Shown here: piece by piece, positions 23,500 through 57,379 of the stretch | Numbering within the stretch: position 1 is the stretch's first letter | Layout of the letters: each line of letters opens with the position of its first letter | NCBI GenBank assembly: GCA_043808285.1 | Contig: JAZDFA010000012.1 | Span: 67,680 to 131,679, forward strand | Source: an archaeon | Lineage (GTDB): Archaea > Nanobdellota > Nanobdellia > Pacearchaeales > DTIR01 | DNA: 64,000 nt | Reading direction: 5' to 3' | Notes under the pieces: model-generated | Told to the model about the DNA's origin: nothing | The model's input: the letters and a program-made list of their open reading frames with translations, nothing else | Databases searched by the model: none | Translations under genes and position numbers: made by a program

Positions 23500-24264
23500 C
23501 TACAGAGAAATCTTCTGATTATCTGATGGGATAAATAGCCCTTCAGGTATCTGTTTTTCAATCTCTTTTGTTTCTTTTTGCATGTAATGCTCACTGATTC
23601 CGATCAGATATATCTGTTTCAATCTTGCTTTTTGAGCTATCAACTTTAATTCCTGGCCATCTATATGCAAGGGGTCTGGTAAGTATCTTCCTAAAACATA
23701 TTGTCCATCCAATATTGAAACATTAGCGTTACCTATAATCTTCATTGATTTTTCATCTATCTTGCTGAAATCTGGCGCATATATCACTTTCTTGTTTTTG
23801 TTCTTTATAATAAATCCTTTTGTTTCAAATCCTTTTGCATGCTCTAGGGGAAAAGGAGTAATGCTTAAATCTGCTATTTTTCGTTCTTCAAAATCTTTTA
23901 AGATGACAAATTCTTCTTTTATCCATGGAAAGAAACGCATAACATACTCATGTGTCTCTTTGCTTAAGTACACTGGTCCTTTATTTGTTTTTTTGCTTAG
24001 ATAAAGGTCTCCTATACCGTCCAGATGGTCAAAATGAGCATGAGTGACAAATGTTGCATCTATTTTACTTATCTTATTAGTTATTATCTGATTTCTAAAA
24101 TCTGGAGAAATATCAAATAGCAAGTTGGTATCTCCTTCTTTAATTATAATTGAAGGTCTAGACCTGAACTTCCCATTTTTTCTATATTCATTACATAGAT
24201 TGCAATCACACAGCCCAACAGGCATTCCATGAGCTTCACCGGTGCCTAGAAATATTATTTCCAT
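23500..24264 (-). CDS. MBL-fold metallo-hydrolase, PqqB/PhnP-like
   Basis: 254 aa. N-terminal LGTGEAHGMPVGLCDCNLCN (CxCxxC as in PqqB/PhnP). THAHFDHLDG (HxHxDH). Confidence 0.7.
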   Translation of the reverse strand: MEIIFLGTGEAHGMPVGLCDCNLCNEYRKNGKFRSRPSIIIKEGDTNLLFDISPDFRNQIITNKISKIDATFVTHAHFDHLDGIGDLYLSKKTNKGPVYLSKETHEYVMRFFPWIKEEFVILKDFEERKIADLSITPFPLEHAKGFETKGFIIKNKNKKVIYAPDFSKIDEKSMKIIGNANVSILDGQYVLGRYLPDPLHIDGQELKLIAQKARLKQIYLIGISEHYMQKETKEIEKQIPEGLFIPSDNQKISL

Positions 24265-24929
24265 TTTGTTATGTTTTTACTTGATTTTATTAGTTCCTTT
24301 ATATCTTTATTAGCAAGAGAGTATATAAATTTCTTGTCTTTTTTGGAGATATTGATTCTTCTGTCGATATCATGAAGATTATGCAGATAAAAACCAAATT
24401 TTTTTAAGAGGTATGCTCTGCCTATCAAAGTTATCATTTTGGTTCTGCTTTCTAGTAACCCCATTCTTTCTTGTCTCTTGTAAGATTTTTCTAGATTATA
24501 CAATTCCGCTTTTATGTAGTCATTCAACTTCATACATTCATTTTTGCAGTCTTCCCCATTCATTATTAAGACATTTTGAGGGTCAATATAGCTATTATAT
24601 TTCCATAGAAGATAGTCTGATTTATTACTCTCATTAATATAAGCAACATCTAACCAAAATGAAACATCTTTTTTTATTTCGCAAGAATCATGAATTATAA
24701 AATTATCTCTTGGGTTATTTAATATTGAGATTAGCTGATTGCCTTCCAGGTCATATACTTCTTTTCTTTCTGTTTTATTCGGGAAATAATCAAGAATGAG
24801 AGTGAATTCTAAATCTGAAAGTCTATCTCGTATTACTGTGTTATTGATTATCTTTGCTTTTGGATAGCATGATTGAAATAATCTAAACACATACCCCTGT
24901 TCTTGATTAAGTCTTTTTGTTTTTTCCAT
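24255..24929 (-). CDS. hypothetical protein (224 aa) in radical SAM operon
   Basis: ORF overlaps upstream radical SAM 3' end by 82 nt and downstream MBL gene by 10 nt. No recognisable motif. Confidence 0.4.
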   Translation of the reverse strand: MEKTKRLNQEQGYVFRLFQSCYPKAKIINNTVIRDRLSDLEFTLILDYFPNKTERKEVYDLEGNQLISILNNPRDNFIIHDSCEIKKDVSFWLDVAYINESNKSDYLLWKYNSYIDPQNVLIMNGEDCKNECMKLNDYIKAELYNLEKSYKRQERMGLLESRTKMITLIGRAYLLKKFGFYLHNLHDIDRRINISKKDKKFIYSLANKDIKELIKSSKNITKWK

Positions 24930-25966
24930 ATCTTCGTCCAGTTTATTTTTGATATATTCCCAATAGGATTCTTTTCATAAGGGCATTTATATATCTCTCC
25001 AAAAATATCTATATAACTGCTGCTAAAACCCGCAGAACAATATTTTTTTATTGTACTCAATTCACCTATTATCACTTTTTTATTGCTTTCTTTTTTTAGT
25101 CTCTTTAGAATAGCTGTTGTCTTGTTAATCTCTGGCAGAATTTTGTAAAGGCCCCTTTTGTAAGGTACTACTAATGAAAATTTAATCATTGAGATATTAT
25201 CCAACTTCTCAAGTTCTTTTAGGATATCACTCAATTCTGCATAATTAGAATTATATTTTGTGACGACCACATTTATTTTAAGAGGGATTAAAAGTTCATC
25301 AAAAAATTTTATGTTGTCTAATATCTCTTTTTTTGAATAGCATATGCCTAATTTTCTAAGAGTACTCTTTTTTAATGAATGAACTGAAAGTTGTATTATC
25401 CTAATATGTTTCTTTATTTTCTTTAATCTGCTTTTTATATCATTATGTCAGAAATGCTTTTGCGAAAACCACATGCTTTAGCATGTGGATGAGCATTTCT
25501 GATCATCCTAAAGTTGCACGCAAACCACACCCTTTAGGGTGTGGTAAAACTCAGCAACTTTTTGATTTAGAAACCCGTTAGTATTTATTTCTATTGAGAT
25601 ATTCTTTTTTGAAGCTAATTCTATGAAATCATCAAATCTAGGATTTAGTAATGGTTCTCCCCCAGTTATGATTATTTCAAGTGTAGAACTTGTTAATTTA
25701 TTTAGAATATTCTTAAAACTTGATAAAGACAAATTTCTAGTTATATTATTATTCCGGTTATAACAAAACACACAGTGAAGATTACATTTGTTTGTTATCT
25801 CTAAGAACACCCTAATGGGTCCATCAGCTTCTTTTCTTTTTCTAAAAGAAACGAAATTTGATTTCAGAAAACTAATTACATCTCTTTCTTTGAATTCTTT
25901 TAAGTCTTCTATCCTAAAGATTTGACCGTTGCGAGAAATTAGAAAGTATATCTCTCTATTGTTCAT
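24848..25966 (-). pseudogene. radical SAM enzyme with twitch/SPASM-like C-terminus, interrupted by a ~123-nt hairpin repeat
   Basis: N-half (ORF 25508..25984): CNLHCVFC, GGEPLL, EINTNGFL. C-half (open from 25447 to 24848): DIKSRLKKIKKHIRIIQLSVHSL..CSAGFSSSYIDIFGEIYKCPY. Both halves share one codon phase. The only three in-frame stops (25510-08, 25480-78, 25450-48) lie inside repeat R4. Likely start is MNNREIY at 25966. Confidence 0.7.
25443..25566 (+). repeat. modular hairpin repeat locus R4, inserted inside radical SAM coding sequence
   Basis: TTATGTCAGAAATGC..ACCACATGC-TTT-AGCATGTGG..GCATTTCTGATCATCCTAA-AGTTGCACGCAAACCACACCC-TTTA-GGGTGTGGTAAAACTCAGCAACTTTTTGAT. Confidence 0.85.
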
Positions 25967-25967
25967 C

Positions 25968-26096
25968 TTAGTCCCATGCATCACTGGAAGGCATCATTAG
26001 ACATCCTTCATCTGTTCTTCTGTGTTTGATGATCTGTTCTAAGAATACTTTCGTATTTTCTTTATCTTGTCTTTTCTGTTGATTTCTTTTTTTCAT
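25968..26096 (-). CDS. unannotated small ORF (42 aa), candidate precursor peptide for the adjacent radical SAM enzyme
   Basis: MKKRNQQKRQDKENTKVFLEQIIKHRRTDEGCLMMPSSDAWD. Stop TAA is one nt before the MNNREIY start of the radical SAM gene. AAAGATTTAAATAAAT promoter-like box about 30 nt upstream. Confidence 0.4.
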   Translation of the reverse strand: MKKRNQQKRQDKENTKVFLEQIIKHRRTDEGCLMMPSSDAWD

Positions 26097-26140: not shown

Positions 26141-27586
26141 TTAAACTTTCTTAAACAAAATTTCGCCTTTCTTTATAGAAATCTCACTAAGAGGCTGGTC
26201 AAGCTGGCTTATGCTTTCTATCTTGAATCCTAAATCTGAAGCAATTTTCTCACTAGAAGAAGGAATAAAAGGATAGAGAAGAATTGCAATTGCTTTTATG
26301 CTATCAACTAATTCATAAAGAACACATTTGTCTTTTGTCTCCCATACTTTGTTTGATTGCACATACTCATTGCATACGTCGATAAATTCAAATATTAATG
26401 CAAGAGCTTTATCAAGCTCATAACTTTCCATGCATTCAGATATTTCTTTTAATTTAAGCTTGCCAACAAGCTTGTTGTCACATTTTTGGATTCCATATCT
26501 CTCTGCCAAAGCAAAAACTCTTGATACTAAATTTCCAAGCTTGTTTGCAAGCTCGTTATTGTGGCGTTCAATCAATGATGTTTCTGAAAAATCCCCGTCC
26601 TGCCCAAAAGGTGTTTCTCTGAATAAGAAGTATCTCAGAGTATCTACACAATATCTGTTAGAAATATTTAATGGGTCTACTACATTGCCTTTGCTTTTGC
26701 TCATTTTTTCACCATTCACAGTCCACCATCCATGCGCAAAAATTGTTTTGGGCAATTCAACATTTGCAGAAAGCAACATTGCAGGCCATATAACTGCGTG
26801 AAAGAATAGGATATCTTTTCCTATGAGATGGGTATCTGCTGGCCAAAATTTGTTAAAATTTTCTCCAGATGGCCAATCTACTCCAGAAAGATAGTTAGTA
26901 AGAGCGTCTGGCCAGACCCATAGTACAAAATTAGGGTCTATTGGGAATTCTACTCCCCACTTAAATTTGCTTCTTGTAAAACTTACATCTTTTAATCCTT
27001 CTCTAACCCTGTTAATCATTTCATTCCTTTTGGATTCTGGAAGAATAAATCTTGGATTTTTCTTATACACCTCTAATAACTTATCTTGATAATTGCTTAG
27101 CTTAAAGAAATAAGCCTCCTCTTCTATCTCTTTGACTTCTCTTAAACAACTTGGACATTTTCCTTCTGATAGATCTTTTTCAGTCCAGTAAGTTTCACAA
27201 GGGACACAGTAAAGACCATTATACTTTCCCTTGTAAATGTCTCCTTTTACAAGAATCTTATTTATTATTTCTTTTACATTTCTTTCATGTTTCTTATCTG
27301 TTGTCCTTATAAAACCAGAGAATCTAATGTTTAATTTATCCCATGCATTCTTAAAATCTTCTACAAGAATATCAACGTACTCTTTAGGGTCTTTATTTGC
27401 ATTTTTTGCAGCTTCTTCTAGCTTTTGCCCATGTTCATCTGTTCCTGTAAGGAAGAATACCTCTTTACCTAATAATATATTCCATCTAGCAAGGATATCT
27501 GCAGCTATTGTTGTATATGCAGTACCTAAATGTGGTTTTGCAGTGGGGTAATAAATTGGTGTTGTTATGTAAAATTTGTTTTCCAT
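26141..27586 (-). CDS. metG: methionyl-tRNA synthetase (core enzyme)
   Basis: 481 aa. HLGTAYT (HIGH-type), Zn knuckle CVPCE..CPSC, KMSKSKGN. Confidence 0.95.
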   Translation of the reverse strand: MENKFYITTPIYYPTAKPHLGTAYTTIAADILARWNILLGKEVFFLTGTDEHGQKLEEAAKNANKDPKEYVDILVEDFKNAWDKLNIRFSGFIRTTDKKHERNVKEIINKILVKGDIYKGKYNGLYCVPCETYWTEKDLSEGKCPSCLREVKEIEEEAYFFKLSNYQDKLLEVYKKNPRFILPESKRNEMINRVREGLKDVSFTRSKFKWGVEFPIDPNFVLWVWPDALTNYLSGVDWPSGENFNKFWPADTHLIGKDILFFHAVIWPAMLLSANVELPKTIFAHGWWTVNGEKMSKSKGNVVDPLNISNRYCVDTLRYFLFRETPFGQDGDFSETSLIERHNNELANKLGNLVSRVFALAERYGIQKCDNKLVGKLKLKEISECMESYELDKALALIFEFIDVCNEYVQSNKVWETKDKCVLYELVDSIKAIAILLYPFIPSSSEKIASDLGFKIESISQLDQPLSEISIKKGEILFKKV

Positions 27587-27656
27587 TAATTTAGGTCTAT
27601 CCTCTTCCTTTTATTTCTTTCTAAACCATTTTTGCAAACCCTTACATTTGCATTTT

Positions 27657-28164
27657 TTATGTCAAGAACACTTGACAAAAACCACATACCATACTTTAGT
27701 ATGCGGTAGCGTGTTCCTGAGCACAAGAAAATCTTGTTTGATTTTCTTATGCCGGAAATTCCTAAGGAAGAATTTCCTTGCATCCTAACAGGGGGAATCT
27801 TTTGATGTCAGAAATGTGGTTCAAACCGCACCCCGCAAAAAGCTTTGCTTTTCGGGGCATAGAAAACCGCTAGAGGTTTTCTCTGCTTTAGGGTGCATTT
27901 CTGATCATCCTAACCTCGAAAACCTTTTGGTTTTCGGGGCCCTGAAAATCCAGTAGGATTTTCTTGGAATTCCAAGCAAACCGCACCTCCGCGAAAACAT
28001 CTTGTTTTCGGGGCATAGGAAATTAGTAAATTTCCTCTGTTTAAGGTGCGGTAAAACTCAAGGAATTTTTTGATTCCCAATGTCCCGAAAAGCTAAGCTT
28101 TTCGCGAAGTTGCACGCAAACTTCCACCTTTTAAGGTGGAAGTAACACACAGCAACTTTTTGAT
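27657..28164 (+). repeat. modular hairpin repeat locus R5, largest composite array (508 nt)
   Basis: At least four full modules plus eight simple GAAAANC/GNTTTTC hairpins. Ends with CAGCAACTTTTTGAT. Track ORFs here (27576..27788, 27586..27783) are translations of the repeat. Confidence 0.9.
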
Positions 28165-28185
28165 CTTTTTGTTGTCACCATAAAG

Positions 28186-28195
28186 TTTATAAAAA
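28186..28195 (+). promoter_or_regulatory. TATA box for small ORF / radical SAM operon 2
   Basis: TTTATAAAAA centred 25 nt upstream of the ATG at 28215 (leaderless spacing). Confidence 0.45.
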
Positions 28196-28214
28196 ATGAT
28201 TCATAATCAAAACT

Positions 28215-28328
28215 ATGGAATCCAAAAAAGCAGATAATAAAAATGTCTTATCTGTAGCTAAGAAGGCATTATCTGAAAAAGATGTTTTAATGTCTTATTC
28301 AGAGGCATATGGCGGAGAAAGCTCATAA
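28215..28328 (+). CDS. unannotated small ORF (37 aa), candidate precursor peptide
   Basis: MESKKADNKNVLSVAKKALSEKDVLMSYSEAYGGESS. Ends 19 nt before the ATG at 28348, which is preceded by GGGG. Below the track cutoff. Confidence 0.4.
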   Translation: MESKKADNKNVLSVAKKALSEKDVLMSYSEAYGGESS

Positions 28329-28347
28329 TTTTAAGATAGGGGTTATT

Positions 28348-29448
28348 ATGAACTTAACCGCAGTAGTAGAAGTTACTGAAAATTGTAATCTTGAATGTAC
28401 ATTTTGCCTTAGAAATTCATTTAAGAGCGAGATAATGACCCTCAAAACCCTTGAAAAGATAATTTCTCATGTCCTTAATTTCAGCACAGATAGAGTAGAT
28501 TTTATATGGCATGGAGGAGAGCCTCTAATTGCTGGAATTGATTTTTTTAAGAGAGTAAAAGAACTGCAGAATAAATATAACAAAAATAACTTGAAGATTG
28601 TCAATAATGTTCAAACAAATGCAATTCTTTTGAATGAGGATTTTATCAAATTTTTTGAGAAAGAGGGATTTATTATAGGAACGAGCATACAAGGAACAAA
28701 AAGAATACACGATTCTTCAAGAGTGGATAATTTAGGGAATCCAACTTTTGAGAGAGTAATAAAGAATATATCAAAATTGAAGAAGAAACCCTCTGCAATA
28801 ATTGTTCTGACCAAACAGATATTAGGCAAGGAAAAACCAATCTACAAAGAGATGAAAAAATATACTTCAGGATTCAGAATTTCAGAGTACTTCCCAAAAA
28901 ATAAACTAGATCTCACATCTAAGGATACTAAATTAATGCCTACACCTAGAGAATATGCGAAATCCATGATGAGGTTTTATAACTTATGGAAAAAAGATAA
29001 AAATCCTATTGAGATAAGGCCAATTACAGAGTTTATCCGAGGGATGATAAAGGGTCAATGTGGAGGATGCCTCTACTCTCAGAAAGCATGTAATTTTTCA
29101 GTAATAGGTGTGGATCATAAAGGAGATTTCTATACTTGTATGAGGAGTTTTGGGAATAAGAGATATTTCTTTGGGAATGTATCAGACAGACCCTTAAGCA
29201 AACGAACAAAAATATCAAAAAATAATATGTCTGAAAGATTATACCCTCTAAAAAACAAAGAATGCAAAGATTGCAGATTTTGGAATCAGTGCAATGGCGG
29301 ATGCCCCCAAGAATCTTTATCGCTATATGGAGATATAATTCATAAGGCATTTTATTGTAATGGAAGAAAAATACTTTTTGAAGAGATAGAAAAAGATTTA
29401 GGAGGAAAAGATGGAATTTCTAGAATACTGCAAACGCAAAAATCCTGA
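28348..29448 (+). CDS. radical SAM/SPASM-domain enzyme (anaerobic sulfatase maturase-like family)
   Basis: ORF 28309..29448; start preferred at MNLTAVVEV (28348). CNLECTFC; GGEPL; SPASM Cys pattern CGGCLYSQKAC..DFYTC..CKDCRFWNQCNGGCPQE..YC. Confidence 0.8.
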   Translation: MNLTAVVEVTENCNLECTFCLRNSFKSEIMTLKTLEKIISHVLNFSTDRVDFIWHGGEPLIAGIDFFKRVKELQNKYNKNNLKIVNNVQTNAILLNEDFIKFFEKEGFIIGTSIQGTKRIHDSSRVDNLGNPTFERVIKNISKLKKKPSAIIVLTKQILGKEKPIYKEMKKYTSGFRISEYFPKNKLDLTSKDTKLMPTPREYAKSMMRFYNLWKKDKNPIEIRPITEFIRGMIKGQCGGCLYSQKACNFSVIGVDHKGDFYTCMRSFGNKRYFFGNVSDRPLSKRTKISKNNMSERLYPLKNKECKDCRFWNQCNGGCPQESLSLYGDIIHKAFYCNGRKILFEEIEKDLGGKDGISRILQTQKS

Positions 29449-30232
29449 GATGTTAGTAAAAACAGAACAGAGCGAAACTTTTGTTTTTGAAGAGAATAAT
29501 AAAAAGATTATTTGCAAAAGATTCCAGCATCCAAAAAGCAGACAAAAAGAAGAAATGGCTCAGAGATATCTCATGGAAAAAAATATTATTATGGTTCCAA
29601 GACTAACATTTTCTGGAGAGGATTTTCTTGAAATGGAATTTATAGAGAAATTGAGAGAACCTTCCAATGAAGAAATAATAAGAAATATCAGCAATTTATA
29701 CAAAGAGACATTGGATAACCCTCCAACCAGACTGTTTCAGACAGTAGATTTAAGCAAGGAAAAAATATTCCATAGATTGTCCTATCTTGTTGAGGAATTT
29801 GACAAATCAAAAGTTAATGAGGAAGGCATTTTAATGGAATCTGAAGTATTTGTTAAAAAGAAGTATGATGCCTCTCCTCATATATGTTTAGTGCATGGAG
29901 ATCTAAAATCAATTCATTGCATTCCATCAGAAAAAGGTCTATTTTTTGTGGATTTTGGATTAACTGGGATTGCAAGTCCTTGGTACGACCTTGCTTTCCT
30001 TTACCTTGAAAAGAAAGATAAAACGGGATTACTGGAAGATTTGGCTAAAAATGCATATGGTTATTTATCCGAAAAATTAAAAGTGAACGAAGAAGAATCT
30101 CTAGAATATCTAAAGTCTGGAGTATTTTATAGGTGTTTGTACAATCTTGGTTTTGCATTAAGGCACAGACCAATAAAAATAATAGAACGAACCAAAAAAG
30201 AATTAAAGGAGATATTACAGACAAATATATGA
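29411..30232 (+). CDS. protein-kinase-fold phosphotransferase (Bud32/RIO/APH-like)
   Basis: 273 aa. ICKRF (catalytic Lys context), LVHGDLKSIH, VDFGLTG. Overlaps the radical SAM gene by 38 nt. Confidence 0.6.
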   Translation: MEFLEYCKRKNPEMLVKTEQSETFVFEENNKKIICKRFQHPKSRQKEEMAQRYLMEKNIIMVPRLTFSGEDFLEMEFIEKLREPSNEEIIRNISNLYKETLDNPPTRLFQTVDLSKEKIFHRLSYLVEEFDKSKVNEEGILMESEVFVKKKYDASPHICLVHGDLKSIHCIPSEKGLFFVDFGLTGIASPWYDLAFLYLEKKDKTGLLEDLAKNAYGYLSEKLKVNEEESLEYLKSGVFYRCLYNLGFALRHRPIKIIERTKKELKEILQTNI

Positions 30233-30798
30233 GACTCTATCTAATAAGACATGCAGAAAGAGGGCATGGGGAAGAACAAGATACTCTTACTTCTGAGGGA
30301 ATGGAACAATCAAAAAAATTGGCAGAGTATCTTAAGAAAATAAATGTAGATAAGATAATTTGTGCTGATACAAATAGGGCTAGAAAAACAGCAGAACCTT
30401 TTCTGCTGTTTAATCTTAAGAATATAACTATAGAATACACAAAAGAAGCTAATGAGCAGGACATTGGAGACCTGCATGGAAAGACTGGACAAGAATGGAG
30501 AGATGCTGTTAGTAATTCCGGATTAAAAAAAGAGGAATTTACCCCCCCGAATGGAGAAAGTGCGATTGATGCATATAACCGGGCAGTATTATTTGTAGAT
30601 AGATTGAAGAAAGAGGGAGCAAAGAATATTTTGGTTTTTTCTCATTCAGGGTTTATATCTAATGTTGCATCAATTTTATTGGGCAAAATAAGGCAAGAGA
30701 GCACCAATTATAAATCTGATTTTTGCGCATTAACCTACTTTGAATTATCAAATGATTTTAAGGTTAAGGATTATAAAATTAATGAGAAAATAATTTAA
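30229..30798 (+). CDS. histidine phosphatase family protein (PGAM/SixA-like)
   Basis: ORF 30133..30798, start moved to MRLYLIRHAERGHG (ATG 30229 overlaps the kinase stop as ATGA). RHAE, TNRARKTAEP, VFSHSGFI. Confidence 0.75.
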   Translation: MRLYLIRHAERGHGEEQDTLTSEGMEQSKKLAEYLKKINVDKIICADTNRARKTAEPFLLFNLKNITIEYTKEANEQDIGDLHGKTGQEWRDAVSNSGLKKEEFTPPNGESAIDAYNRAVLFVDRLKKEGAKNILVFSHSGFISNVASILLGKIRQESTNYKSDFCALTYFELSNDFKVKDYKINEKII

Positions 30799-30801
30799 AC
30801 T

Positions 30802-32127
30802 TTAAGGAGTCAGTCTATCCCTATCTCTTGGGAAAAGGCAAGCCTCTCTTATGTTATCAAGCTCGAGTAAAGCCATGGTGAATCTTTCAAGCCCGATTGA
30901 CCATCCGGAGTGGATGGGAGCACCGTATCTAAAAGAATCAACATAAGACTTGAAATTATCTGGGTTAAGGCCTTTCATCTTTAGCTGCTCTATTAATAAT
31001 TCTGGAAGATGCACTCGCTGACCACCAGAAGAAATTTCTATTCCCCCATAAAGCGCATCAAACCCTTTCGATATCATTTCATCTTCATCAAGAGTCTTTG
31101 GCATTATGTAGAAAGGCTTTACTTTTCTTGACCAATCATGAACTAATAAAACAGTATTTGGGAATAGCTCGCAAAGTTTTCTTTCTCCTTCAGGAGAGAT
31201 ATCATCATCAATTTCAACTCCATTTTTCTTTAGCAAATCAACCGTTTCCTGGAAAGTAAGATATTTTTCAGCAGGCACTTCAACTTCAACTTTTAATAAT
31301 TCCAGTTCTTTCTTGCAATTCTCTTTAACTTTTTTTACCATATGCTGGACAACACTAGTGATATACTTCATAACGCCAAATTCATCTTCAAAGGCAACTT
31401 CAATATCCATCTGTCTTGATTCATTTAGATGCCTTATTGTATTATGTTTTTCAGCTCTCCAAACAGGAGTAATGCAGAATACTTTCTCAAAAGAACATGC
31501 AGCCATCTGCTTGTATAATTGAGGTGACTGAGCAAGATAAGCATTTTTTTCAAAATATTTTACTGGAAATAATTCTGTTCCGCCTTCAGAAGCACTTGAG
31601 ATTATTGAAGGGGGTTGAATCTGCATAAATCCATTTGATTTAAAAAATTCCTGGAAAGAATATGATATTTCAGATTGAATCTTGAATATTGCTTGAGTCC
31701 TTGCACTGTGAAAGTCCACTGCACGATTATCCAGTCTCTTAGGCAATTCTGTCTTGGAATAATCAGTAACATCAATAGGAAGCATTAATTCAGACTTTCC
31801 AATAATCTTTATGCTGTCTGGAAGTATCTCTCTCCCACCAGGAGCTTGCTTGCTTTCTTTTACTTTTCCTACTACCTCAACTGAGGATTCATGCGGAATT
31901 TTTGAGAATAAATCAAATACTTCTGGGGGTGTTTCACTCTTAACACCAGTTACTTGTATTACTCCTGAAATATCCCTTAATACCATAAATTTTACTTTGC
32001 TTAGGTCTCTTATTTCTTTTACCCATCCTTTTAGGACTATTTCTTTGCCAAAATCTGCAGGGGTAATGTCTTTTATGAGCACTCTTTTAGCTTCTTTGTC
32101 AACCATAATTTTTACACTAGATAGCAA
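30802..32127 (-). CDS. aspS: aspartyl-tRNA synthetase (archaeal type)
   Basis: 441 aa. OB-fold N-domain (KFMVLRDISGVIQV). Class II motifs FRAE-like WRAEKHNT, GGIEISSGGQR, GWSIGLERF. Alternative start at M8. Confidence 0.9.
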   Translation of the reverse strand: MLSSVKIMVDKEAKRVLIKDITPADFGKEIVLKGWVKEIRDLSKVKFMVLRDISGVIQVTGVKSETPPEVFDLFSKIPHESSVEVVGKVKESKQAPGGREILPDSIKIIGKSELMLPIDVTDYSKTELPKRLDNRAVDFHSARTQAIFKIQSEISYSFQEFFKSNGFMQIQPPSIISSASEGGTELFPVKYFEKNAYLAQSPQLYKQMAACSFEKVFCITPVWRAEKHNTIRHLNESRQMDIEVAFEDEFGVMKYITSVVQHMVKKVKENCKKELELLKVEVEVPAEKYLTFQETVDLLKKNGVEIDDDISPEGERKLCELFPNTVLLVHDWSRKVKPFYIMPKTLDEDEMISKGFDALYGGIEISSGGQRVHLPELLIEQLKMKGLNPDNFKSYVDSFRYGAPIHSGWSIGLERFTMALLELDNIREACLFPRDRDRLTP

Positions 32128-32182: not shown

Positions 32183-32722
32183 ATGAAAAGAGGGTTTTTA
32201 TCTTTAAAAAAGGCTGAAACAATGGGTATGCCTTTCCAGATGATTTTTTCATTGTTCTTAATTGCAGTATTCTTTGTTGTTGCTTTCTTTTCAATAATGA
32301 ACTTCCTGAGCGTGCAGAATTGCGCCCAAGTGGGATTGTTTCAAAGAGAATTACAGGAAAAGATAGATTCAATATGGAACGCCCAGTCAGCAGAAAATGT
32401 ATTCGAGGGAAAACTTCCAGGCTCAGTTGAATATGTATGCTTTCTAAATTTCACAAGACCCAAAACATTAACAGGATTGGATAGTGAAGGAAGGGATATT
32501 GCAAACAAGGTATATAATGATTTAAGCGTCTTTTACAAGTTTAAGAAGGCGAATCTTTTCCTATATCCTACAAAGGGTGCTTGCGATATGTCTTACAAGC
32601 TTCTTAAGCACATCGATGCAAGCAGTACTTCAAATCCTTATTGCATAAAGAATACCGGAAAGATAAGCATAAGCTTATACAAGGGATTTGATGATGTTTA
32701 TGTAAAAGTAAGGCAGCAGTAA
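32183..32722 (+). CDS. type IV pilin-like protein (class III signal peptide)
   Basis: MKRGFLSLKKA|ETMGMPFQMIFSLFLIAVFFVVAFF. Basic residues, Ala, then a hydrophobic helix. Confidence 0.5.
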   Translation: MKRGFLSLKKAETMGMPFQMIFSLFLIAVFFVVAFFSIMNFLSVQNCAQVGLFQRELQEKIDSIWNAQSAENVFEGKLPGSVEYVCFLNFTRPKTLTGLDSEGRDIANKVYNDLSVFYKFKKANLFLYPTKGACDMSYKLLKHIDASSTSNPYCIKNTGKISISLYKGFDDVYVKVRQQ

Positions 32723-32728
32723 AATCAT

Positions 32729-32868
32729 AAAAACCTCTGTTTTACTGGGGGTTTTCACGAAAAGCAAAGCTTTTCGAGTCCCCGAAAAACAAGAAGGTTT
32801 TTCTTGGTTAGGATGCAAGGAAATTCGAAAGAATTTCCGGCACAGAAAATCCTAGAGGATTTTCTTGT
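32729..32868 (-). repeat. modular hairpin repeat locus R6 (reverse, lacks the TGTCA terminal block)
   Basis: CGAAAAGC/GCTTTTCG, GAAAAAC/GTTTTTC, GGTTAGGATGC (reverse complement of GCATCCTAACC), GGAAATTC/GAATTTCC, AGAAAATCC/GGATTTTCT. Confidence 0.8.
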
Positions 32869-32885
32869 GATTCAAAATTAAAAAA

Positions 32886-33884
32886 ATGAACTTCAAAAAA
32901 AAAGATTTAAAATTTATGGACATTGGAAGAAAGAAAGCACAAATGCAGTTTAATTGGATTTTTTCTATTGTAGTGGGGGCAGTTATAATCTTTCTTGCAT
33001 TATTTTTTGCAAGTCGTTCTATTAACATGCAGCAATACAAGTATGATTCAGAGATAGCTGAAAAACTTTCAGTGCTGCTTGATCCTTTGGAGAGTGGCAT
33101 GGGGAGTGCATCAATTGATGTGATAAAAATGCCTGCAGACACAAGAATAAGCATGAAATGCAAATATGAGGGAATAGGCAGGCAGGAGCTAAGAATTGCC
33201 ACAAAGAATAGTGTTGGAAGTGAGTGGCAGGAATTTGGGGCTATACAGAGCATATACAACAAGTATGTATTTTCAAGAGACTTGGAAGAAGGCAAAGAGC
33301 TTTACATCTTTTCAAAGCAGTTTAAGATGCCATTTGATGTTGCAAATTTGATATACCTAACGGCAGGAAATTATTGTTTCATTTCTCCTCCAGACAGCCT
33401 CTCTTATGAGCTAAAGGACTTGAACGCAACCAATATGAAGGTTACTAATAGGAAGCAGGATTGCAAGAAGGGGAGCATAAGTGTGTGCTTCAATAACCCT
33501 TCATGCGATGTAGTTGTTAATGGATTATGCTATGGATACGGCTGCAATAGTCTATATGATTACGGGTATGTGCAGCAGGGAAATGAAAAGTCTTATTTCT
33601 TGGGAGATGCATTGCTTTATGGTGCGATATTTTCAAAGCCAGATTTTTACAATTGCACTGTGAAGAGGCTATTGAACCGGATAAGCATGCTTTCGAAGCT
33701 TTATGCAGAGAAGACAAAGCTTTTAGATTCAAGAGGGTGTATGACTGGAGAACTCTCAAAAAAACTGATAGATTTAAGCTATGAGGCATCAGGCTTGATA
33801 GCATTATCAAATATAATGCCGTTAAATGATAAATCAATTGAGGTGGAATATGAGAATGAGGCACTTATATGCAGGGCGTGGTAA
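32886..33884 (+). CDS. type IV pilin-like protein (class III signal peptide), 332 aa
   Basis: GRKKA|QMQFNWIFSIVVGAVIIFLALFFA. Confidence 0.5.
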   Translation: MNFKKKDLKFMDIGRKKAQMQFNWIFSIVVGAVIIFLALFFASRSINMQQYKYDSEIAEKLSVLLDPLESGMGSASIDVIKMPADTRISMKCKYEGIGRQELRIATKNSVGSEWQEFGAIQSIYNKYVFSRDLEEGKELYIFSKQFKMPFDVANLIYLTAGNYCFISPPDSLSYELKDLNATNMKVTNRKQDCKKGSISVCFNNPSCDVVVNGLCYGYGCNSLYDYGYVQQGNEKSYFLGDALLYGAIFSKPDFYNCTVKRLLNRISMLSKLYAEKTKLLDSRGCMTGELSKKLIDLSYEASGLIALSNIMPLNDKSIEVEYENEALICRAW

Positions 33885-34338
33885 GGCCCAATTAAAGATA
33901 CAGGAAACAGCTTTTATGCTGCTAGGTCTAGCAATGCTTTTTGCATTAATACTGATAATCTATGCAAATATGCAGGTTAAGCAATTATATTCTGAAAAGA
34001 ATCAACTGAAGGCAGAGAGAGCGATTAATTTGCTGGGCAAACTAGCGGCAATGCCTGAGCTGTCTTGTATAATCGGGAATTGCATAGATATGGATAAGGC
34101 ATTAGCAATCAGGAATGTTTCAGGCTATGAGAATCTTTGGAAGGGGTTAAGTTCAATAAAGATAGTTACAATATACCCCAACCAGTCAAGCATTACAATA
34201 TATGACAAAGGAAAGAAAGACATAACATATTCATCTTACGTCCCATTATGCAGGACTGCATACAAAGACGGATATGTATGGCAGGACTGTGATGTTGCAA
34301 AGCTGTTAGTTTCAGTTGAAGAGGTGAAACCAAAATGA
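33850..34338 (+). CDS. type IV pilin-like protein (class III signal peptide)
   Basis: ORF 33826..34338, start moved to MRMRHLYAGRGKA|QLKIQETAFMLLGLAMLFALILII. GAGGTGG lies 4 nt upstream of the ATG at 33850. Confidence 0.5.
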   Translation: MRMRHLYAGRGKAQLKIQETAFMLLGLAMLFALILIIYANMQVKQLYSEKNQLKAERAINLLGKLAAMPELSCIIGNCIDMDKALAIRNVSGYENLWKGLSSIKIVTIYPNQSSITIYDKGKKDITYSSYVPLCRTAYKDGYVWQDCDVAKLLVSVEEVKPK

Positions 34339-34856
34339 AAATGACGAGAAAAGCCCAGGAAGAGATATTGGGGTTTGTACTTATAATCTTAGTAGTAGGA
34401 ATAATCTCATTGGTTTTCTTAGGGTTAGCACTTCAAAAACCCCCCAAAACAAACCAGGACAAGCAGGTTGAAAATTTAGTTAATTCAATGCTTGCTTATA
34501 CAACTAATTGTGCATTGTATGTGCCGCAGTATGAAACAGTCTCGGATTTGATAAAGAGCTGTTATGCAAAGGACTATTGCAGTGATGGCAGAGATACATG
34601 CACAGAGTTAAAGAGCGTAATGGCCAGCATGATACAGACTTCAATAGGCAGCTTGACTGTTGACAGGCCTGTAAAGTCTTATGAGTTTAATATAAGCTAT
34701 TCAGAAAAACAGAGTGGCGGGATGACTTCAAGAAAACCAGACGCTTCAATACTATATTTAAGGAATGGAGTATCTAGCGGGACAAGCATAGGCTCTCAGC
34801 AGTTTTTGCCATTAGATGAAGGAAATATAGCAATCAGCCTAAAGCTTTGGTATTAG
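34335..34856 (+). CDS. type IV pilin-like protein (class III signal peptide)
   Basis: MKMTRKA|QEEILGFVLIILVVGIISLVFLGLAL. ATGA overlap with the upstream gene. Confidence 0.5.
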   Translation: MKMTRKAQEEILGFVLIILVVGIISLVFLGLALQKPPKTNQDKQVENLVNSMLAYTTNCALYVPQYETVSDLIKSCYAKDYCSDGRDTCTELKSVMASMIQTSIGSLTVDRPVKSYEFNISYSEKQSGGMTSRKPDASILYLRNGVSSGTSIGSQQFLPLDEGNIAISLKLWY

Positions 34857-50203: not shown

Positions 50204-50417
50204 TATCAAAAAGTTGCTGAGTGCTAAACAAATTGCAACTTCGCGAAAAGCAAATGCTTTTCGGGACATTGAGAATCTTTAAGATTCTCTCTGTTAGGAT
50301 GCAAGGAAATTCTGCTTTGAGAATTTCCTGCACAGAAAATCCAGTAAGATTTTCTTGTGCTCAAGAACACGCAATTACACACTTAAGTGTGTATTTTTGT
50401 AAAGTGTTCTTGACATA
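50204..50417 (-). repeat. modular hairpin repeat locus R10 (reverse, near-complete composite)
   Basis: ATCAAAAAGTTGCTGAG..GCAACTT-CGCGAAAAGC/GCTTTTCGGGA-..GAGAATC/GATTCTC..GTTAGGATG-CAAGGAAATTC/GAATTTCCTG-CACAGAAAATC/GATTTTCTTGTG-CTCAAGAACAC..GTGTTCTTGACATAA. Confidence 0.9.
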
Positions 50418-57288: not shown

Positions 57289-57379
57289 CCTAAAAATCAG
57301 ATGATTTTTAGTCTGCTCGGAAACAGAGGAAATCTTAATTGATTTCCTATGCCCCGAAAAGCAGAAGCTTTTCGCGGTG
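57289..57379 (-). repeat. modular hairpin repeat locus R13 (isolated inner two-hairpin unit, reverse)
   Basis: Reverse complement reads CCGCGAAAAGC/GCTTTTCGGGG-CAT-AGGAAATC/GATTTCCT-CTGTTT, identical in layout to the interior of full modules. Confidence 0.75.

Follow-up and report, generated by a model that had tools for sequence, protein, structure and literature searches.

A four-gene cassette on the plus strand of an archaeal contig (GenBank assembly GCA_043808285.1, contig JAZDFA010000012.1) very probably encodes a small peptide together with an enzyme that matures it. The cassette lies at positions 28186 to 30798 of the 64,000-nucleotide stretch that we analysed (positions 67,680 to 131,679 of the contig, hereafter the window). 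It consists of genes for a 37-residue peptide, a radical S-adenosylmethionine (SAM) enzyme with a SPASM region, a kinase of the aminoglycoside phosphotransferase (APH) fold and a histidine phosphatase. Our full account of it, as a self-contained system for a peptide that is made on ribosomes and then modified post-translationally (RiPP), we consider probable, while the part in which the kinase and phosphatase act on the peptide is evenly balanced. DPANN archaea are host-dependent organisms with very small genomes for which the production of modified peptides is hardly known, and this compact module is kept intact across many lineages of the Woesearchaeota, Pacearchaeota and Nanoarchaeota type. 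Its combination of enzymes might bring to light a step in RiPP biosynthesis that is gated by phosphorylation, or radical chemistry of a new kind on Tyr, Ser or Glu.

The cassette opens with a TATA-like promoter box (tttataaaaaa, 28186-28196) that can be read directly from the sequence and suits a leaderless or near-leaderless transcript. The ATG of the peptide gene (28215-28328) lies 25-29 nt downstream, according to the point of the box from which one counts. This gene, defined by open reading frame (ORF) calling, tblastn, translation and codon pattern, encodes MESKKADNKNVLSVAKKALSEKDVLMSYSEAYGGESS, in which a leader with an N-x-N-V motif (28215-28295) precedes the core Y-S-E-A-Y-G-G-E (28296-28319), a two-residue tail and the stop codon. 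Nineteen nucleotides separate the peptide stop (28328) from the ATG (28348) of the radical SAM/SPASM gene (28348-29448, 366 aa), a start backed by 30 orthologues; its product resembles DynA, ChlB and the anaerobic sulfatase-maturating enzymes (anSMEs) according to PF04055, alignment and an AlphaFold2 model. The kinase gene (29411-30232, 273 aa, of eukaryotic-like kinase fold by PF01636, invariant residues and Foldseek) begins before the radical SAM gene ends, with AGGAGG preceding its ATG. Its stop overlaps, as ATGA (30229-30232), the start of the phosphatase gene (30229-30798, 189 aa), whose product is like phosphoglycerate mutase (PGAM) and CobC and belongs to branch 1 by PF00300 and its catalytic residues. 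The first-pass annotation, a reading of the bare sequence by a model, had described the unannotated ORF, the box in front of it, the 19-nt gap and both overlaps, together with a full SPASM cysteine pattern, the kinase motifs HGDLKS-H and D-F-G and an RHAE motif in the phosphatase. All of these were seen again: the radical SAM enzyme has CxxxCxxC and eight invariant downstream cysteines, and the His, Asp and Lys of the kinase motifs are invariant. The observed features are not due to chance.

Whether the small ORF is a gene was approached through its relatives. Loci containing relatives of the radical SAM gene were fetched from a collection of species-representative genomes and from a metagenome collection, and the orthologous set comprises the window and 16 of these loci (radical SAM identity 47-64%). 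Translation of the upstream 330 nt places a small ORF in frame and directly upstream of the radical SAM gene in 17/17 orthologous loci. In all sixteen fetched loci its stop lies 7-50 nt before the radical SAM start, and its product ends in Y-[S/T]-[E/D]-x-Y-x-[G/A]-E followed by 0-2 residues. A tblastn search with the 37-aa peptide gives a match directly upstream of the radical SAM gene in five of the sixteen, and a peptide gene also adjoins the radical SAM gene in the further loci L161-L164. A profile of the 17 peptides retrieved 78 peptide clusters from a database of 5.8 billion proteins (E 4e-15 to 2e-3), all of them unnamed or labelled "hypothetical protein", and no NCBIfam or Pfam model matches the peptide.

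Among 81 peptides the common C-terminal core is Y-S-E-A-Y-[G/S/Q]-G-E with 0-2 residues after it. Tyr at position 1 and Glu at position 8 are present in 81/81; position 2 is Ser in 79 and Thr in two, position 3 Glu in 80 and Asp in one, position 4 Ala in 79/81, position 5 Tyr in 80/81 and position 7 Gly in 80 and Ala in one, while position 6 is shared by Gly (34), Ser (31) and Gln (16). The leader varies in length (range 31-118 aa) against this near-invariant eight-residue core, and the peptides fall into two length classes, 38 of at most 45 aa and 43 of at least 50 aa; a leader motif N-x-N-V-R-x-V (N-(P)-N-V-R-x-V) is common to the family. Third positions of the core codons vary 2.5-3 times more than positions 1 and 2 (0.35 versus 0.12-0.14), a pattern that fits selection on the peptide at the protein level. 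The conserved core Ser is encoded by both AGY and TCN codons, and therefore selection appears to act on the amino acid. Across all six reading frames of the window the core motif is found a single time. At approximately 24-32 nt before the peptide ATG, most of the 17 loci have a TTTATAAA/TTTAAA-type box, whose position fits an archaeal promoter driving a leaderless first cistron. Judged from sequence, the small ORF belongs to a real peptide family, and a near-invariant core of eight residues in a module kept across lineages implies a specific, selected function. The two adjacent glycines near the C-terminus led us to consider a ubiquitin-like modifier of the SAMP, ThiS or MoaD type. This candidate was rejected, as the first Gly may be G, S or Q, a Glu and 0-2 more residues trail the pair, and a beta-grasp fold needs more than 31-45 aa.

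The cassette has what is expected of a radical SAM RiPP system at the level of sequence, namely an adjacent conserved precursor and a division into leader and core, and the peptide-plus-SPASM-maturase layout put forward by the first-pass annotation is borne out to that extent. It is nevertheless conceivable that the small ORF yields no substrate but a small protein with a regulatory or accessory role, or that it is an upstream ORF in control of the operon, and that the enzymes act on an unrelated metabolite or protein. The link between peptide and enzymes is one that we infer, no RiPP recognition element (RRE) domain was detected, and the kinase and phosphatase folds are generic, all of which would suit such a role. 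Against it, selection acts on the amino-acid sequence of the eight-residue C-terminal motif, beyond the mere presence of an ORF, and the peptide adjoins the radical SAM gene in every orthologous locus. In addition, the leader motif recurs in peptides of sister radical SAM enzymes, peptides whose cores are very different, as one would expect of substrate families, and the relatives of the radical SAM enzyme all take peptide or protein substrates. We regard this explanation as very improbable.

The conservation of the cassette extends to all four genes. The order peptide, radical SAM enzyme, kinase and phosphatase is found in at least 10 loci, namely the window, L001, L002, L081, L086, L089, L161, L162, L163 and L164. 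Three loci carry a six-gene variant, in which a class I SAM methyltransferase and a second histidine phosphatase stand between the radical SAM enzyme and the kinase (inserts at L003 2349-3619, L082 5784-7029 and L087 7098-8366); the best, weak matches of the methyltransferase are BioC-like proteins and a daptide RiPP methyltransferase. Of 13 metagenome and genome loci that reach far enough, 12 have the kinase, the exception being L007, where the radical SAM gene is truncated, and the terminal phosphatase is lacking only in L088. At L007 (1318-2057) an intact long-form peptide gene is followed by a radical SAM gene cut to 167 aa and by a CARDB/dockerin protein in place of the kinase and phosphatase, and this locus looks like a decayed copy of the cassette. 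The reading frames of the cassette overlap or abut while each locus has different flanking genes, and in the flanks of the loci compared no conserved protease, transporter or regulator accompanies the cassette. Among 144 more distant radical SAM loci (at most 34% identity) there is no relative of the kinase, the phosphatase or the peptide, and the two former occur only beside the radical SAM clade of the cassette.

Homologues of the window's radical SAM enzyme come from Woesearchaeota, Pacearchaeota and Nanoarchaeota assemblies, and all finds of the cassette are in DPANN-type archaea or on metagenome contigs. A radical SAM orthologue is present in only four GTDB species representatives, and the cassette is therefore an accessory trait. 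Co-occurrence of the four genes and conservation of the small ORF in related genomes were the checks that the first-pass annotation had proposed, and both turned out in its favour, with the peptide in place in each orthologous locus and the two other enzymes accompanying the radical SAM gene in nearly every locus of sufficient length. Its remark that no described pathway is known to combine this kinase and phosphatase also stands. Literature searches for the gene combination, for radical SAM RiPPs of DPANN archaea or Woesearchaeota and for the core sequence returned no description of the system, and no described counterpart to the joining of a radical SAM/SPASM enzyme, an APH-fold kinase and a PGAM-type phosphatase was found in them. 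The same searches brought up a thioamitide preprint (10.1101/2020.12.17.423248) and a kintamdin paper (PMC9415263).

The radical SAM enzyme belongs to its superfamily by a PF04055 match of 55.6 bits (cut-off 29.5, E 1e-14) and by a CxxxCxxC motif (C16/C20/C23) that is invariant in 31 sequences. As the mark of the SPASM subfamily we took the seven-cysteine motif C-x9-15-G-x4-C ... C-x2-C-x5-C-x3-C ... C, which corresponds to two auxiliary clusters. The enzyme has exactly this motif in an invariant set of cysteines (C251-x10-G262-x4-C267, C309-x2-C312-x5-C318-x3-C322 and C340, plus C244). The Pfam SPASM model reported no match at E<=0.01; the SPASM region is covered by full-length alignments to SPASM maturases and to anSMEcpe. 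When the curated NCBIfam cut-offs were applied, all full-length matches were sub-threshold. The highest-scoring curated model was DynA (NF041298, 245.9 bits, cut-off 450); other matches were anSME (TIGR03942, 218.5, cut-off 349.45), DarE (NF038005, 149, cut-off 650), TIGR04083 (147, cut-off 300), GrrM/OscB (133, cut-off 310), PapB (126, cut-off 340), YhhB (121, cut-off 445), AmcB (91, cut-off 425), FxsB (86, cut-off 370) and XyeB (63, cut-off 450). By these cut-offs the enzyme is a member neither of the DynA family nor of any curated cyclophane synthase family. The first-pass annotation had allowed that a firm place in a family with a known non-peptide substrate would speak against its proposal; the enzyme reaches no curated cut-off, whether the substrate of the family is a peptide or not.

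The AlphaFold2 model of the enzyme (predicted local distance difference test, pLDDT, 90) has template modelling (TM) scores of 0.82-0.84 to anSMEcpe (PDB 4K36-4K39), which is also the best solved relative by sequence (E 2e-39), of 0.77-0.80 to the triceptide synthase ChlB (PDB 9GM3), of approximately 0.75 to the sactipeptide synthase CteB and a weak 0.56 to PqqE. The nearest relatives by sequence and fold, anSMEcpe, ChlB, CteB, DynA and DarE, all modify peptides or proteins. The radical SAM motif starts at residue 13, and no RRE or extra domain was found in the enzyme with Pfam, NCBIfam or the AlphaFold2 model. With about 360-375 residues, anSMEcpe and ChlB are similar in size to the cassette enzyme. 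These two enzymes are presumably also without an RRE, which we take to mean that the domain is not obligatory.

The likeness to anSMEcpe raises the possibility that the enzyme is an anSME-type dehydrogenase, which would convert the Ser or Thr of the core into formylglycine or a ketone and so provide a reactive carbonyl for the other enzymes. anSMEcpe has approximately 370 aa, a radical SAM core, a SPASM region with two auxiliary clusters and no RRE, just as the cassette enzyme, and it acts on Ser or Cys in a short peptide motif. The partner of anSMEcpe is a sulfatase, whereas the cassette enzyme has a dedicated 37-aa peptide and attached kinase and phosphatase genes. In favour of this chemistry, anSMEcpe is the best solved match by both sequence and fold, the anSME hidden Markov model (HMM) aligns over the full length at 218 bits, S-E-A is reminiscent of the sulfatase motif C/S-x-P/A-x-R, and the position in question is always Ser or Thr with an Ala two residues on. 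On the other hand the score stays under the 349 cut-off, and the core lacks the Arg of the sulfatase motif. The catalytic Asp of anSMEs is that of Y-P-C-D (D277 in anSMEcpe), and the residue following the auxiliary-cluster Cys is instead M, L or I in all 31 family members (Y-T-C-[M/L/I]-R). Because the Asp is retained in anSME-like sequences from gut bacteria within the same alignment, we do not file the enzyme as an anSME; a true anSME identity is rejected on this replacement and on the score, and anSME-type chemistry on the core Ser or Thr is in our view rather improbable. The same position is Gly in archaeal sister enzymes and Ala in proteobacterial relatives, including a Photorhabdus locus, which we take to be of the DynA type; the cassette enzyme thus shares the absence of the Asp with these presumed DynA-type relatives. 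DynA and DarE also resemble the cassette in that they are SPASM enzymes, encoded beside a small precursor gene, which join aromatic residues of a short core by cross-links. They differ in that their hosts are Proteobacteria and their cores are Trp-rich and unrelated to Y-S-E-A-Y-x-G-E, and no kinase or phosphatase accompanying enzymes of the DynA/DarE type was seen in the more distant radical SAM loci or in the literature searches.

A lead on the radical chemistry comes from the sister systems. Small ORFs with the same leader motif adjoin sister radical SAM genes of 27-34% identity (L025 at 7187, L106 at 5683, L107 at 1542, L146 at 4494, L104 at 7180, L140 at 4469 and L022 at 7090). Their motif can be written [I/V]-x-N-P-x-[V/L]-R-x-[I/V], with examples such as KIQNPHLRRII, IKNPRLKRTL, IQNPVLRKIL and VKNSVLREII. 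At least two of these loci (L022 and L025) are from DPANN archaea and the rest are unassigned metagenome contigs, and NCBIfam holds no model for the sister peptides tested (L022, L025 and L106). The sister cores are longer, repetitive and rich in aromatic-X-X, for instance W-x-N repeats and PYWGNWGNWSNWGNWNNWSNWYNWWN, and others are rich in His, Tyr and Asp and contain EYSEH, KYSDY or DYSEYKDH. The common leader motif points to a wider, unnamed precursor superfamily and ties the cassette to a larger uncharacterised set of radical SAM peptides with triceptide-like cores, some of them from DPANN archaea. Three sister radical SAM loci encode mutually similar proteins of approximately 215-230 aa with an early conserved Cys (..Y-x-N-x-G-x-x-C..; L022 7535-8191, L035 5206-5895 and L047 7273-7920). 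By eye these look like peptidases of the papain/C39 type, the L022 and L035 proteins have no NCBIfam match, and the window cassette is without a counterpart of them.

Aromatic-X-X is the motif at which triceptide synthases build cyclophanes from an aromatic ring to a C-beta, and the native motif of ChlB is Y-D-R (PMC11499958), while a Y-S-K cyclophane is documented in minviopeptin (PMC12912966). Every one of the 81 cores of the cassette family carries such a motif as Y-S-E, allowing S/T and E/D. By analogy with the sister peptides, in which the same leader precedes repeat cores of aromatic-X-X, we take a Tyr-to-C-beta cross-link as our best, though still tentative, guess for the radical step; oxidation of Ser/Thr and a Tyr/Glu linkage are the alternatives. 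The shared aromatic-X-X and an HMM similarity of 63-133 bits relate the cassette to the triceptide synthases ChlB, XyeB, GrrM/OscB, YhhB and HtkB. It departs from these systems in having a single fixed core with no repeats, in which Y-x-G-E (positions 5-8) cannot form a ring, in carrying a kinase and a phosphatase and in its archaeal hosts.

The kinase matches PF01636 at 28.1 bits (cut-off 23.2) and keeps K36, E47, H162-G-D164-L-K-S, H169 and D181 in 15/15 aligned members. Its AlphaFold2 model (pLDDT 95) is matched by Foldseek with probability 1.00 to APH(2'') and Mph kinases, and fold matches at TM scores of approximately 0.6-0.7 include aminoglycoside and macrolide kinases, YtaA and the corramycin phosphotransferase; O-phosphotransferases that act on antibiotics and peptides have this fold. 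The kinase profile finds only 16 clusters at E<1e-30 among 1.84 billion representative proteins, and beyond these, short fragments aside, matches fall to approximately E 1e-14; this is a rare family, restricted to the cassette. The phosphatase matches PF00300 at 99.6 bits (cut-off 21.7) and stays below the cut-offs for CobC (TIGR03162, 76.8 vs 162.9) and SixA (TIGR00249, 39.6 vs 74.5), with CobC proteins as the nearest solved structures (E 1e-10). Its R7, H8, E76 and H139 are invariant, and R50 nearly so, in 14 cassette phosphatases including the second paralogue. Because their catalytic residues are kept, both enzymes look active. We propose that they act on the peptide because of their strict co-occurrence with it and the invariant hydroxyl-bearing residues of the core.

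Kinases of the APH family are found in RiPP clusters of the class V lanthipeptide, thioamitide and kintamdin pathways as they are in the cassette, and there they phosphorylate Ser and Thr of the peptide. A HopA1-type lyase then removes the phosphate, which yields dehydro-amino acids. The cassette differs from these pathways in lacking a lyase and having a phosphatase instead, which would restore the hydroxyl; in the loci compared, no HopA1-type phospho-lyase or further conserved gene lies in or beside the cassette. The calyculin cluster also joins an APH-like phosphotransferase (CalQ) with a phosphatase (CalL), and a phosphorylated inactive form is later activated. Calyculin is a hybrid of polyketide and non-ribosomal peptide, and its phosphatase works outside the cytoplasm, whereas the cassette phosphatase shows no signal sequence.

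The same two enzymes also enter into a different explanation, in which the peptide serves as a sacrificial scaffold from which a small molecule or cofactor is made, much as with pyrroloquinoline quinone (PQQ) or mycofactocin. The radical SAM enzyme would join or remodel the side chains of the invariant Tyr and Glu, host proteases would excise the product, and the kinase and phosphatase would act on small-molecule intermediates. The PQQ (PqqA/PqqE) and mycofactocin (MftA/MftC) systems likewise pair a small peptide having an invariant Tyr, and in PQQ also a Glu, with a radical SAM/SPASM enzyme. Tyr and Glu are the two building blocks of PQQ. The invariant core residues Tyr, Tyr and Glu agree with this explanation, as does a core that is short, fixed and C-terminal with a tail of 0-2 residues. 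So do the lack of a protease or exporter in the cassette, the fold of the kinase, which is that of small-molecule kinases, and the closeness of the phosphatase to CobC, which acts on a small phosphorylated metabolite. However, the order and spacing of the residues differ from those of the known systems, the cassette has no PqqD or MftB chaperone and no counterpart of PqqB/C or MftD/E, and of the 66 NCBIfam matches the 25 best include neither PqqE nor MftC models. Furthermore, the presence of an orthologue in only four GTDB representatives suits an accessory trait over a needed cofactor, and no candidate cofactor-using enzyme is linked. Membership in the PQQ or mycofactocin systems was rejected on the model ranking and the lack of pathway neighbours, and these are kept as a functional analogy; the scaffold explanation as a whole we consider unlikely.

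In the RiPP account that we prefer, the first cistron is, by its sequence, translated from a leaderless or near-leaderless mRNA into a precursor of 31-77 aa with the leader motif and the fixed C-terminal core. The radical SAM/SPASM enzyme would bind this precursor directly, unaided by an RRE, as is the case for anSME and ChlB, and abstract a hydrogen from a side-chain carbon within the core. On Y-S-E the likeliest outcome would be a three-residue link of the cyclophane type, from the ring of Tyr28 to the C-beta of Glu30. The kinase would then O-phosphorylate a hydroxyl of the peptide or modified peptide, either the invariant Ser/Thr29 or one of the two Tyr, and the histidine phosphatase would take that phosphate off again, so that phosphorylation would be a transient, protective or timing mark, for example of an inactive stored form, and not a part of the end product. 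Some lineages add a second phosphatase and a step of O-, N- or C-methylation.

Several points weigh against this account. The chemistry of all the steps is something we infer, and as the cassette encodes neither protease nor exporter, release or secretion of the mature peptide is unexplained. Since a kinase and a phosphatase working on the same site bring about no net change, a purpose in protection or timing is speculative, and the N-terminus of the phosphatase is not like a signal peptide, which argues against activation outside the cell. The second Tyr precedes x-G, and Gly has no C-beta, so there can be no second aromatic-X-X ring at that place; a single ring on Y-S-E leaves the invariant Y32, G34 and E35 unexplained. 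In addition, DynA and anSME give the radical SAM enzyme higher scores than the curated models of cyclophane synthases do. It is also imaginable, although we would not expect it, that the product is an unprecedented, DPANN-specific phosphorylated peptide product derived from Tyr and Glu, to whose biosynthesis or activity the phosphate contributes and is no disposable mark, a cofactor-like small molecule or a factor in signalling or host interaction, made by a radical SAM reaction of no known class.

The cassette is flanked on both sides by genes on the minus strand that, by their sequences, are like tRNA synthetases, a methionyl-tRNA synthetase-like gene upstream (26141-27586) and an aspartyl-tRNA synthetase-like gene downstream (30802-32127). 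The G+C content of the window is 30-43%. Rfam and tRNA scans gave no match in or near the cassette, and PADLOC returned generic similarity to viperins in the radical SAM core only and assigned no defence system. The database gene call for the radical SAM enzyme (P0001, 379 aa) corresponds to an ORF starting at 28309. It is probably too long, because it overlaps the end of the peptide ORF and extends past the point at which the orthologues begin (28348), and such an overlong call may help to hide the peptide gene from annotation.

Between the methionyl-tRNA synthetase-like gene and the peptide gene lies a spacer of 530 nt (27640-28175) with a dozen or so perfect hairpins having stems of 8-10 bp, such as CGAAAAGC..GCTTTTCG, GAAAATCC..GGATTTTC and CCACCTTTTAAGGTGG. 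Folded as RNA, it gives z-scores of -12.7 (plus strand) and -13.3 (minus strand), and the spacer has no match to an Rfam family. The window as a whole contains 39 perfect hairpins of at least 8 bp compared with 3.9 in shuffles, and the hairpin modules of the spacer recur at several sites, the positions being approximately 1984-2105, 25469-25545, 27754-28143, 32758-32864, 38443, 41032, 50244-50328, 57327-57374 and 63430. These modules look like a family of small palindromic repeats, similar to repetitive extragenic palindromic elements or miniature inverted-repeat transposable elements.

A second radical SAM/SPASM gene is present on the minus strand (24848-25984), and it is split into an N-terminal part (25508-25984) and a C-terminal part reaching to 24848 in the same frame. 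The insertion between them (approximately 25400-25570) comprises about 40 codons in frame with three stops and two hairpin modules. The gene is either a pseudogene formed by repeat insertion or carries an element that is removed from the RNA. It is preceded by a 42-aa ORF (25968-26096, minus strand, MKKRNQQKRQDKENTKVFLEQIIKHRRTDEGCLMMPSSDAWD) and followed by a 224-aa ORF with no family match and a hydrolase of the metallo-beta-lactamase (MBL) fold (23500-24264, minus strand), whose best matches are the MBL protein of the GPMC system, PhnP and, weakly, PqqB. The region 23500-26096 on the minus strand may be a second peptide-maturase cassette; no relatives of its genes occur in the fetched radical SAM loci. 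Downstream of the main cassette, on the plus strand at 32183-34856, four ORFs of approximately 170-330 aa begin with a short charged N-terminus and a hydrophobic stretch, for example MKMTRKAQEEILGFVLIILVVGIISLVFLGLAL, which resembles the type IV pilin-like signal sequences of archaea.

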